A stretch of 11,348 nucleotides of DNA from a bacterium (GTDB taxonomy: Bacteria > Bdellovibrionota_C > UBA2361 > CALJRW01): NCBI GenBank assembly GCA_031385045.1, contig JANNBC010000029.1:1-11348 (forward strand), written 5' to 3'. The position numbers were made by a program. Every line of letters starts with the position of its first letter. Position 1 is the stretch's first letter. Below are positions 4,401-7,400 of the stretch, piece after piece.

Positions 4401-7400
4401 CTCTAATTTCATTTAGTTCTAGTACCGCAAATGTTCTTGCCCCATTAGCAGAACAAGAGCAAAAAATTCAATTAGCGATTGCCTCAGATCCAAAAGTTAT
4501 TAAAGATCGAAAATTTTCTTTTTTACATTGGGTAATTGCTAAAGAAGAAGTCCGCGCATTAAGGGAAGAAATTATTCGTCGTGGCTATCACCGCATTGCA
4601 GTTATTCACACCGAGCACGAAGGATCTAATGCTATTGTCGATGCTGTGAACAACGATTTTAAAGAGAATAATTTAGAGTCAAAACTTATCCTGCAAGAAT
4701 CCTATCTCCCGGATAATTTTGATTTTAAAAATTTTATTATTAAGGCTAAGCAAAAAAATGCTGATTCCGTAATTGTAGTATTATTCCCTGGTGGCTTATC
4801 AAATTTTACTAAGCAGGCACGACAATTAAAACTAGATGTGCCATTTGCTGGAGTGGAAACATTTGAAGATGAGAGTGAAGTCAAAGCTGCTCAAGGGACA
4901 CTGCTAAATCAGTGGTACGTTAACAGTGATGTACCATCAGATAACTTTATTAATAGCTTTAAGAAAAAATATAATAGTTATCCTTCAGCCTACACTGCAA
5001 ATATTTATGACTCCATTAAGCTACTCTCGCAGGCTGTAACTCTATATGGGACAGATACTTCAAAGATTGCTCATTTTCTAGCAACGCTTAAAGACTACCA
5101 AGGAGCTTGCGGTCAGTACTCTACAACTGGGGATAATCGGTTTACACTGAAAGCGACAATTAAAGTCGTTACTAAGGATGGATTTCCCAAGCTCTAATTC
5201 TCCCCTTTTGGGACGCCCAGCATCGCCACTAATAACTAGATTATCTAGTGCGTCCCAAAAGGGGAGAAGGCGCAAAAAAAACGACCCAATGGGTCGTTTC
5301 TATTCTAAGTATTTTTAAGATTACTTAGAGTATGCCATTAAGCCTAAGCTCTGTGCACGCTTTACAGCTTTCTTCATTTTTCTTTGGTTATAAGAAGAAA
5401 GACCTGTGTACTTTCTTGAAAGTAATCGTCCACGCTCGCTAACAAATCTAGCTAAGGCATTTACGTCACGGTACGAAAGCTCCTTAGTTGGATCTTGAAC
5501 ATAAGGATCCATTCTACGGTTACGTTTAAAAATTGGAACTCTTTGAATTGGTGGAAAGTATTCTTGCTTAGCAGTTTCACGAACTTCAGCAGGCTTGCCT
5601 TTATCAAAAGCAACTTTCATTGGTCGGCTATTAATAACTCTTTCATTCAAAGCTTTAACAGCTTTTTCAGCGTCATCAACATTTTCCATTTCAATAAAAG
5701 CGAATCCACGAGAACGTTTTGTTTCACGATCAACTGCGATCACAACGCTTAAACATGGGCCAAACTCTTCAAACATTACCCGTAAATCGTCGTTGGTAAC
5801 TTCAAAATCAATATTGCTTACAAATAATCTTCTTCTTTTTTCCATTGCATTAATTAACAAAATAGCTCGCGAATATTAGTTAATCTGTAGTTTTATGTCA
5901 AGGATAGGGAAATTGAGTCTTAAAATAGGCTAAACTGTCGTTCCTTGGATATTCAAAAGGCTTAGTCTTTGAAATTAATAGTTAAAAAATATAAATTATT
6001 TTTATAACTGCGTTTTAAACTTAACCAATGAGATTTATTGACAAAAAATTTTTTTTTATATAAAAAACAACTTGTTACAAGAGGCTAAGAAAAGATTTTT
6101 CTTGACTTAGCTTGTTTAAGTAGTTTATAGAAATTACTTAGTTTTTACTGTAAGTTAGGTTGACGTCCCACTTGTTGATTTAATTCATCAGTCTTATTCG
6201 GTTTTACACAGTTAGTTTTTTGGAGCCATAAATGAGTACTAGCAACGCATATAAGAGATTTGGATTTGAAGATGATGATTCCTTTTCGGAAGCCAAATCG
6301 GAGGTAAAACCAGAAAGAAACCTGTTAGCAGCCGTTCTTTCCCGAGCAATTTGTGATGCCTTTGGTACTGCGCATTGTGAAAGACACGTAGTTCGTAGCG
6401 CACGACGTTGGATTTTCAGCCAACTAACTCCAAAAATCCCTTTTAGTTTTGCTTGGGTCAGCATTCATTTAGACTTAGAGCCTACAGAACTTCAAAATAG
6501 CCTTCGTACTTACGAAGACAATCCTGACGACATCCAAGATCGCCTTGCTCTTTTAAAATAGCTCTTTTAAAATAGCCCTTTTAAAATTAAGCGGGCTCTT
6601 AAAACAACAATCATAGATATAAACTTCGGTGGAGTATTCTAAAGAATTTATCAGAAACTTTATCCTAGTAGTCTCGCTGGTTTTAATAGCGAGACTGTCT
6701 TATGTTGCTGTAGAAGATAATAATTGGCGAGGCCTCATCTACTCCACCCTACATATCATTATTGTTGGACTGGCAGCTTATTACGCACTCTGCAGAACAA
6801 ATAAGAAGACTTAGTGCCAAGTAATCTTCTTATCGTCCAATACATGAGTAATATTATCGGAGAACTCCTTATCTATATCTGAATTAGCAGAATGCATTTG
6901 CTGAACAATAATTGAGGAATTTTTACTTAAATCTTTCCAACGAGCCTCTACCGAGTTTTTAAACTTAATTAACTTATACGCCAACAGAGAAAAAACCACT
7001 CCAAAAAAGATGAAAAAGAGCCCGAATAAAACGGCAAAAAACCTAGGGAAAATAATTACTCCTGCCCCAAAAACTGCTAAGAGTGCCCCTACAGAAAGGA
7101 TTAAACTACCAGGATTTAAAAATGAGTTAAGCACGACTATCTGTGGTTGAGCTTTTCCTTGCATTTTCTCAAATTGGCTTTTGAAATATTTGTTCATAAT
7201 ACGATCCAGAATAGTAAACTTGCTAATAACTGACAATAAAATTTAGGAAAGAATCTGGTCTTACATAAGACAGACGTAGCCAATTGAAAATATTCAGCAT
7301 TAAGCTACCAAATGCTTTATATCCTAAACGAATAAATATTAACGAGTAATCTACGTATCTAAAGACTGAGCTGAAAGAAATCAAGAACTTTATCATTCGC

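Follow-up and report, generated by a model that had tools for sequence, protein, structure and literature searches.

The sole ribosomal protein bS18 of a Bdellovibrionota lineage carries an N-terminal RRM domain

It is rare for a core protein of the bacterial ribosome to acquire an entire folded domain. The mRNA exit pore of E. coli is described as consisting of bS1, bS6, and bS18, and the mRNA likely contacts basic N-terminal residues of bS18 (10.1101/2024.03.19.585789). An extension of chloroplast bS18 is reported to project into the platform cavity (10.64898/2026.07.03.736309). For the anti-Shine–Dalgarno (anti-SD) sequestration of the Bacteroidia, the pocket positions given for F. johnsoniae bS18 are Phe50, Asn56, Gln58, Lys37, and Tyr32 (PMC7797042), and a variant reported to free the tail has seven substitutions, N56S among them (PMC13000457). 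As to free RRM proteins, cyanobacterial Rbp3 is reported to co-purify with ribosomes and mRNA (PMC12232666), and the RRM proteins of Bacteroides are reported to leave ribosome assembly unaffected, with roles as free chaperones or regulators under discussion (PMC13370968).

Here, we analyzed a window of 11,348 nucleotides, which is the whole stretch of DNA under study, from a genome (G000, 94.9% complete) of the class UBA2361, described as a basal branch of the Bdellovibrionota (PMC13200544). A genome-wide survey's note had pointed to the only bS18 gene of this genome as a fusion with an RRM domain and had linked this architecture to SD-independent initiation.

The fused gene, its distribution, and its neighbourhood

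The rpsR gene at window positions 5321..5845 (minus strand, as are all parts of the gene given below) encodes an RRM-bS18 fusion of 174 amino acids according to ORF translation, Pfam, and TIGR00165. Residues 7-76 (5618..5827) match RRM_1 (PF00076; E 6.6e-23, 80.8 bits vs. a cut-off of 20.7), and residues 121-170 match Ribosomal_S18 (PF01084; E 6.6e-18, 65 bits vs. a cut-off of 21); the TIGR00165 score is 54.5 bits with a curated cut-off of 38.75. The RRM contains the RNP2 motif LFVSNI (residues 7-12; 5810..5827) and the RNP1 motif RGFAFIEM (residues 46-53; 5687..5710), both reading as the survey had given them, and has F8, F48, and F50 as stacking residues. Alignment of relatives and AlphaFold pLDDT values delimit a flexible linker (residues 85-94; 5564..5593), which is followed by the conserved basic N-terminal arm of bS18 (residues 95-112, net charge +4; 5510..5563; recognized by sequence comparison) and the bS18 core (residues 113-174; 5324..5509). 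The core is of the zinc-free type (no cysteines), and the C-terminal part of the protein matched solved bS18 chains. With an alignment of 51 sequences, AlphaFold predicted two confident domains (mean pLDDT 86.7, pTM 0.47) of unfixed relative orientation, joined by residues 81-110 with pLDDT values of 62-68, and the N-terminal domain resembled canonical RRMs in Foldseek, with an rmsd of about 1 Å for the best matches. Among 56 fused proteins, the linker is Gly/Ser/Arg-rich and ranges from 8 to 47 residues, and the bS18 arm occurs in two clade-specific versions, E-x-LPPIQR and GYFRAQP.

PF01084 has no match in G000 other than the fusion. In a phylum sample of 124 genomes, all from one class, exactly one bS18 match was present in 116/124 and none in 8/124 genomes, and the match extended from end to end of the fusion profile in 113 of the 116 bS18-positive genomes (a count of search rows). 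The fusion thus extends over the whole phylum, beyond the single order for which it had been claimed. The three exceptions are G043, a fragmented assembly with a frameshift between the two domains, G096, in which a contig end truncates the fused gene, and G099. In G099, rpsR (G099:C117) begins directly after the intergenic region without an RRM; it has a GTG start with AGGA upstream and retains part of the linker, the arm in the form GYFKAQP, and the same neighbour gene. As the sole RRM gene of G099 groups with ordinary free Rbps, the absence of the RRM from its bS18 is, judged from the sequences, a loss, and we rejected the alternative that the RRM had split off as a free gene. The RRM was therefore dispensable at least once.

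Both Pfam domains were found again in 116/120 homologues, as the survey had counted. We rejected an assembly or annotation artefact, since the fusion occurs in 113/116 genomes and in 116/120 and 120/120 of the homologues listed. Databases label the fusion as plain S18 or hypothetical protein, and its Atlas cluster is commonest in Bdellovibrionota. The complete fusion is present in two named records, labelled Bdellovibrionales and Bdellovibrionota bacterium. As to fusions outside the phylum, at least 2 of 80 loci among the matches listed were full length, and another search gave fusions in 2 of the best 150 matches, both of the two known types. Three genomes outside the phylum, one labelled Bdellovibrionales and two Deltaproteobacteria, have an unfused bS18.

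The departure of rpsR from the rpsF-(priB/ssb)-rpsR-rplI operon is universal among the near-complete genomes. In G000, rpsF (C6:86455-86721) directly precedes rplI (C6:86844) with no rpsR between them, in line with the survey, and the two genes are adjacent on the same strand, 102-354 nt apart, in all 78 genomes that are at least 90% complete. Short GC-rich repeated elements lie immediately upstream of rpsF in G000 (C6, about 86320-86370).

At the new location, a motif scan predicted a sigma-70-type promoter, TTGACA-17-TAATAT (5873..5901, minus strand), which implies a leader of about 20 nt without an SD. The motif by itself occurs at chance level (4 sites vs. 3.5 in shuffles), and a similar site was found in 26/38 loci of type A (one of the two types of the fusion, A and B) vs. 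0.9 in shuffles, many of these loci being close kin. Just 3' of the stop codon, a predicted hairpin (5274..5304, minus strand; folding energy -14.2 kcal/mol) is followed by a U run and is probably an intrinsic terminator; it is absent from the list of the consensus terminator scan. A hypothetical gene of 109 amino acids (6232..6561, plus strand), identified by neighbourhood comparison, is divergent from the fused rpsR. It adjoins the fused gene in 49/56 loci, divergent in type A and upstream and co-directional in type B, and it also lies upstream of the RRM-less rpsR of G099. Its product is mostly 59-72% identical across the phylum and had no Pfam or NCBIfam family match; its look-alikes in the Atlas belong to clusters without a name, which come from phages, Pseudomonadota, and Binatota.

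Elsewhere in the window, a perfect 19-bp inverted repeat (5198-5268) lies between rpsR and a convergent gene for a periplasmic binding protein, and its core arm has 4 copies in the genome, both strands counted. A gene at 2033-3304 (minus strand) encodes a protein with leucine-rich repeats and a protein kinase domain, and one at 3395-4123 (plus strand) encodes a receiver-HisKA protein with no ATPase domain match; in 19/56 loci, a receiver-domain gene like the latter is found downstream of the RRM-bS18 gene. The Rfam scan of the window gave a single match, at chance level (312-409), and none near the fused gene.

Integrity, selection, and origin of the RRM

To judge the state of the RRM, we used the 56 fused proteins from the retrieved loci (38 of type A and 18 of type B). 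Its stacking aromatics are nearly invariant: position 8 is aromatic in 56/56 proteins, position 48 is F or Y in 56/56, and F50 is kept in 55/56. The RRM is under purifying selection, with a dN/dS of about 0.05. In genus g31, the values were 0.050 for the RRM (99/136 pairs) and 0.030 for the S18 core (102/136 pairs), saturated pairs having been dropped, and between G000 and G008 the RRM differs by 18 synonymous and 0 nonsynonymous changes. The RRMs of types A and B are 41% identical.

Free Rbps exist in genomes of the phylum separately from the fusion. In trees with 83-86 free RRMs, the fused RRMs grouped together in a single separate clade, at weak FastTree support values of 0.65 and 0.76, which is consistent with a single origin of the fusion. 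Against the Rbp_regulator model (NF058537), the fused RRM scored 85.4 bits, below the cut-off of 100 bits.

Shine–Dalgarno use in carriers of the fusion

That G000 is poor in SDs and that its 16S rRNA keeps the anti-SD were borne out. The 16S tail is GGATTACCTCCTTT, and the anti-SD was intact in 30/30 loci read. SD 4-mers at -18..-5 were present in 237/1924 genes (12%) vs. 123/1924 (6%) in a control at -44..-31, close to the 14.8% vs. 7.9% obtained before. The leaders of G000 are A/T-rich, and the SD signal has a positional peak at -14..-8 (about 3% per position vs. about 0.5%). We rejected the idea that G000 initiates mainly on leaderless messages, as the excess of TANNNT at -12 is small (7.1% vs. 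about 4%).

We then compared the carriers with each other. Over 26 of the 113 carriers, mostly with 60-100 kb each and less for G115, the SD share ranged from 3 to 47%, and the same method gave 36/73 (49%) for E. coli and 1/60 for a Bacteroidota pool; as 27/36 E. coli starts predicted by the SD-blind gene caller coincided with annotated starts, the absolute values are underestimates. Besides G000, the SD-poor carriers were G091 (2/59), G009 (3/48), and G105 (5/46), that is, 3-11%, and the SD-rich ones were G080 (26/55), G032 (28/61), and G076 (22/50). The ribosomal protein genes of S10/spc gave a second view, with homology-anchored starts from eight relatives and a duplex energy of -4.4 kcal/mol or lower as threshold. 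SDs were present at 25/27 such starts in E. coli, 16/18 in G048, 14/19 in G032, 12/19 in G080, 9/18 in G101, 5/17 in G105, 4/16 in G009, 5/22 in G000, and 2/3 in G100, which contributed only 3 genes. G048 did not differ from E. coli (p=1.0) and differed clearly from G000 (p=3e-5). The RRM-less G099 had SDs at 11/18 ribosomal protein starts, one start being unreadable, and its genomic share of 41/151 did not differ from the 43/136 of the fusion-bearing family members G100 and G101 (Fisher p=0.44), a comparison that, as a single loss, is weak on its own.

The fusion is independent of SD poverty. As SD-rich and SD-poor carriers are both present and SD use shows no detectable change in G099, the SD poverty of G000 is a recent, patchy trait that came later than the fusion and does not explain it. 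GC content was rejected as a driver of SD use, since the correlation over 26 genomes, whose kinship makes them non-independent, was non-significant both for SD use (rho 0.35, p=0.08) and for the part of it that exceeds the control (rho 0.16, p=0.43). An enabling role of the fusion in SD-less initiation is possible because most sampled carriers lie below E. coli in SD use.

Sequestration of the anti-SD by RRM-bS18, one of the two routes that the survey had considered, did not hold up. When the pocket positions of F. johnsoniae were mapped through an equal-length match to 7jil_w, Phe50 was found in 1/56 fusions and Asn56 (Ser in 56/56), Gln58, Lys37, and Tyr32 in 0/56 each. The C-termini of bS21 are strongly basic, with a Tyr near the signature Tyr54 in only 2 of 21 sequences inspected by eye, and the bS6 of G000, a single unaligned sequence, ends in a basic extension that contains no Trp (reference Trp100, Arg103, Lys107). 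With the bS18 pocket residues absent and the bS21 tail basic, these sequences give no indication of a Bacteroidia-type sequestration, and the SD peak of G000 also speaks against it.

A possible role at the 30S platform and comparison with known systems

The reading that we prefer, and to which we give about even chances, is that the RRM is a flexibly tethered binder of single-stranded RNA at the platform cavity of the 30S subunit, where, together with bS1, it helps to catch mRNA or keep hold of it, irrespective of the SD status of the message. From what is known of the family and from its status as sole copy, the fusion should be a working bS18, with the usual contacts of its core to bS6 and the 16S platform. 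Its N-terminus, which in other ribosomes faces the cavity through which the mRNA passes, would then bear a canonical RRM on a tether of variable length, so that each 30S subunit would have an extra tethered grip on mRNA acting beside an intact bS1. By catching or holding the leader or the exiting mRNA, the RRM could raise the local concentration of mRNA and keep it unstructured, and this grip would serve messages with an SD as well as those without one. A single origin in the ancestor of the phylum is probable for the fusion, from a standalone RRM gene of the Rbp type as rpsR left rpsF-rplI. In this sense, the survey's placement of the RRM on the platform beside the mRNA exit is plausible in view of the sources on the platform cavity (10.1101/2024.03.19.585789; 10.64898/2026.07.03.736309), and it is the attached link to SD-independent initiation that found no support.

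We rejected compensation for a lost mRNA-binding protein, as bS1 has its full length and all six S1 domains, bS21 is present in 118/124 genomes, and cold-shock proteins occur in 78/78 genomes, which leaves no missing protein to compensate for. On bS21 itself, we observed an N-terminal extension of variable sequence in type-A genomes (five read: G000 C26:5077-5238, L131, L137, L138, and L142) and mostly short proteins in type-B genomes; in G117 (G117:C49), a second bS21 was seen that is divergent and conventional in type and may be contamination (6%).

Several other explanations deserve to be weighed against a tethered mRNA grip. The RRM could act mainly off the ribosome, where free RRM-bS18, alone or with bS6, would exert feedback regulation by binding its own mRNA or others, a role that became needed once rpsR had left its operon. 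The operon exit in 78/78 genomes and the gene's own promoter and probable terminator fit this proposal, as do the leaders of genus g31 (L089-L113), in which a CCTC near the predicted transcript start could, by eye, pair with the GAGG of the SD; yet single-sequence folds show no leader structure conserved across families, Rfam has no match near the gene, and G099 keeps the same gene context without an RRM, so we regard it as unlikely. The g31 pairing corresponds to a short hairpin with an A/U-rich loop, and autoregulation is possible there. Equally improbable in our judgement is a structural or assembly element that binds 16S rRNA or a neighbouring protein. The chloroplast protein cS22, the RRMs of which are reported to bind 16S h6/h10 (10.64898/2026.07.03.736309), would be a model for it, and cS22 (5mmj_v) is among the Foldseek fold matches; the RRM of plant uS19m has been proposed to stabilise rRNA (PMC1950548), and 16S h17 is shortened in the phylum. 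However, in 13 aligned phylum sequences the platform helices h23 and h26 have ordinary length and no lineage-specific platform insertion was seen, and a linker varying between 8 and 47 residues speaks against binding at a fixed site.

A dedicated module for SD-independent initiation, which would capture A/U-rich leaders or sequester the anti-SD as the survey had proposed, we consider quite unlikely. It draws on the few SDs of G000, G009, G091, and G105, on A/T-rich leaders next to an intact anti-SD, and on the position of most sampled carriers below E. coli, but the carriers G048, G032, and G080 are SD-rich, SD use has not risen in G099 despite the loss of the RRM, the F. johnsoniae pocket residues are missing from bS18, and an SD precedes the fused gene itself in 20/56 cases, mostly from one genus. 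Very unlikely, finally, is that the two domains work apart, with the RRM cleaved off or bS18 made from an internal start, so that the fusion would merely co-express a chaperone of the Rbp type. Many members do have a Met at about the normal bS18 start (ATG in 23/38 type-A genes), and free Rbps have Gly-rich tails to which the linker is similar; but the internal start is not conserved, the codon is GTT, ACN, GTA, or ATT in 14/38 type-A genes, this gene included, a start codon with an SD was found there in 0/38, the open frame is kept in 113/116 genomes, and free Rbps exist separately.

If the RRM does grip mRNA on the platform, it could go further than a general grip, and we put this forward as a doubtful though conceivable extension: a sequence-selective RRM in every 30S subunit of the phylum might be a second mRNA-recruitment module beside bS1 that biases which messages are translated, and it might have let several lineages drift independently to near-complete SD loss without a Bacteroidia pocket. 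The RRMs of the eukaryotic initiation factors eIF4B and eIF3g near the mRNA channel offer a comparison for such a module. In any case, a ribosomal protein has gained a whole folded domain, at what would be the site of mRNA delivery, and nearly the whole phylum has kept it. This provides a simple test of how a tethered RNA-binding domain affects bacterial initiation, with the RRM-less version of G099 as a natural control, as well as a lineage marker.

The RRM-bS18 fusion is apparently undescribed, as we found no description of it in the literature searched (subscription journals and supplements were outside its scope). The survey's wording of a new kind of ribosomal protein extension has to be narrowed, since organellar precedents are known in uS19m and cS22, and it stands in so far as we found no bacterial case. 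The protein uS19 belongs to the 30S head. Arabidopsis mitochondrial uS19m (RPS19) is described as having an RRM_1 domain fused N-terminally to a small-subunit protein (PMC1950548), as here, but it is nuclear-encoded and organellar and concerns another ribosomal protein, whereas the fusion described here belongs to bacteria and would lie at the platform. Chloroplast cS22/PSRP2 likewise brings RRM domains into a bacterial-type small subunit, but as a free two-RRM protein on rRNA at the 30S foot, unfused and away from the mRNA channel. The bacterial single-RRM Rbps (cyanobacterial Rbp1-3 and Bacteroides RbpA-C; NF058537) share the order of an RRM followed by a Gly-rich stretch, and Rbp3 also the reported ribosome co-purification (PMC12232666), but they are free proteins, and the fused RRMs form a clade apart from the free Rbps of the same genomes. 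With the Bacteroidia sequestration, which involves bS21, bS18, and bS6, the present system has in common the participation of bS18 and a genome that combines few SDs with an intact anti-SD; it differs in that the signature residues are absent and SDs are common in relatives. The closest likeness in the core is to canonical bacterial bS18 (rpsR; PF01084, TIGR00165; zinc-free form), with scores over both cut-offs, a single copy, and a basic N-terminal arm, to which the fusion adds a folded RRM and a tether, while its gene sits away from rpsF-rplI with its own promoter.
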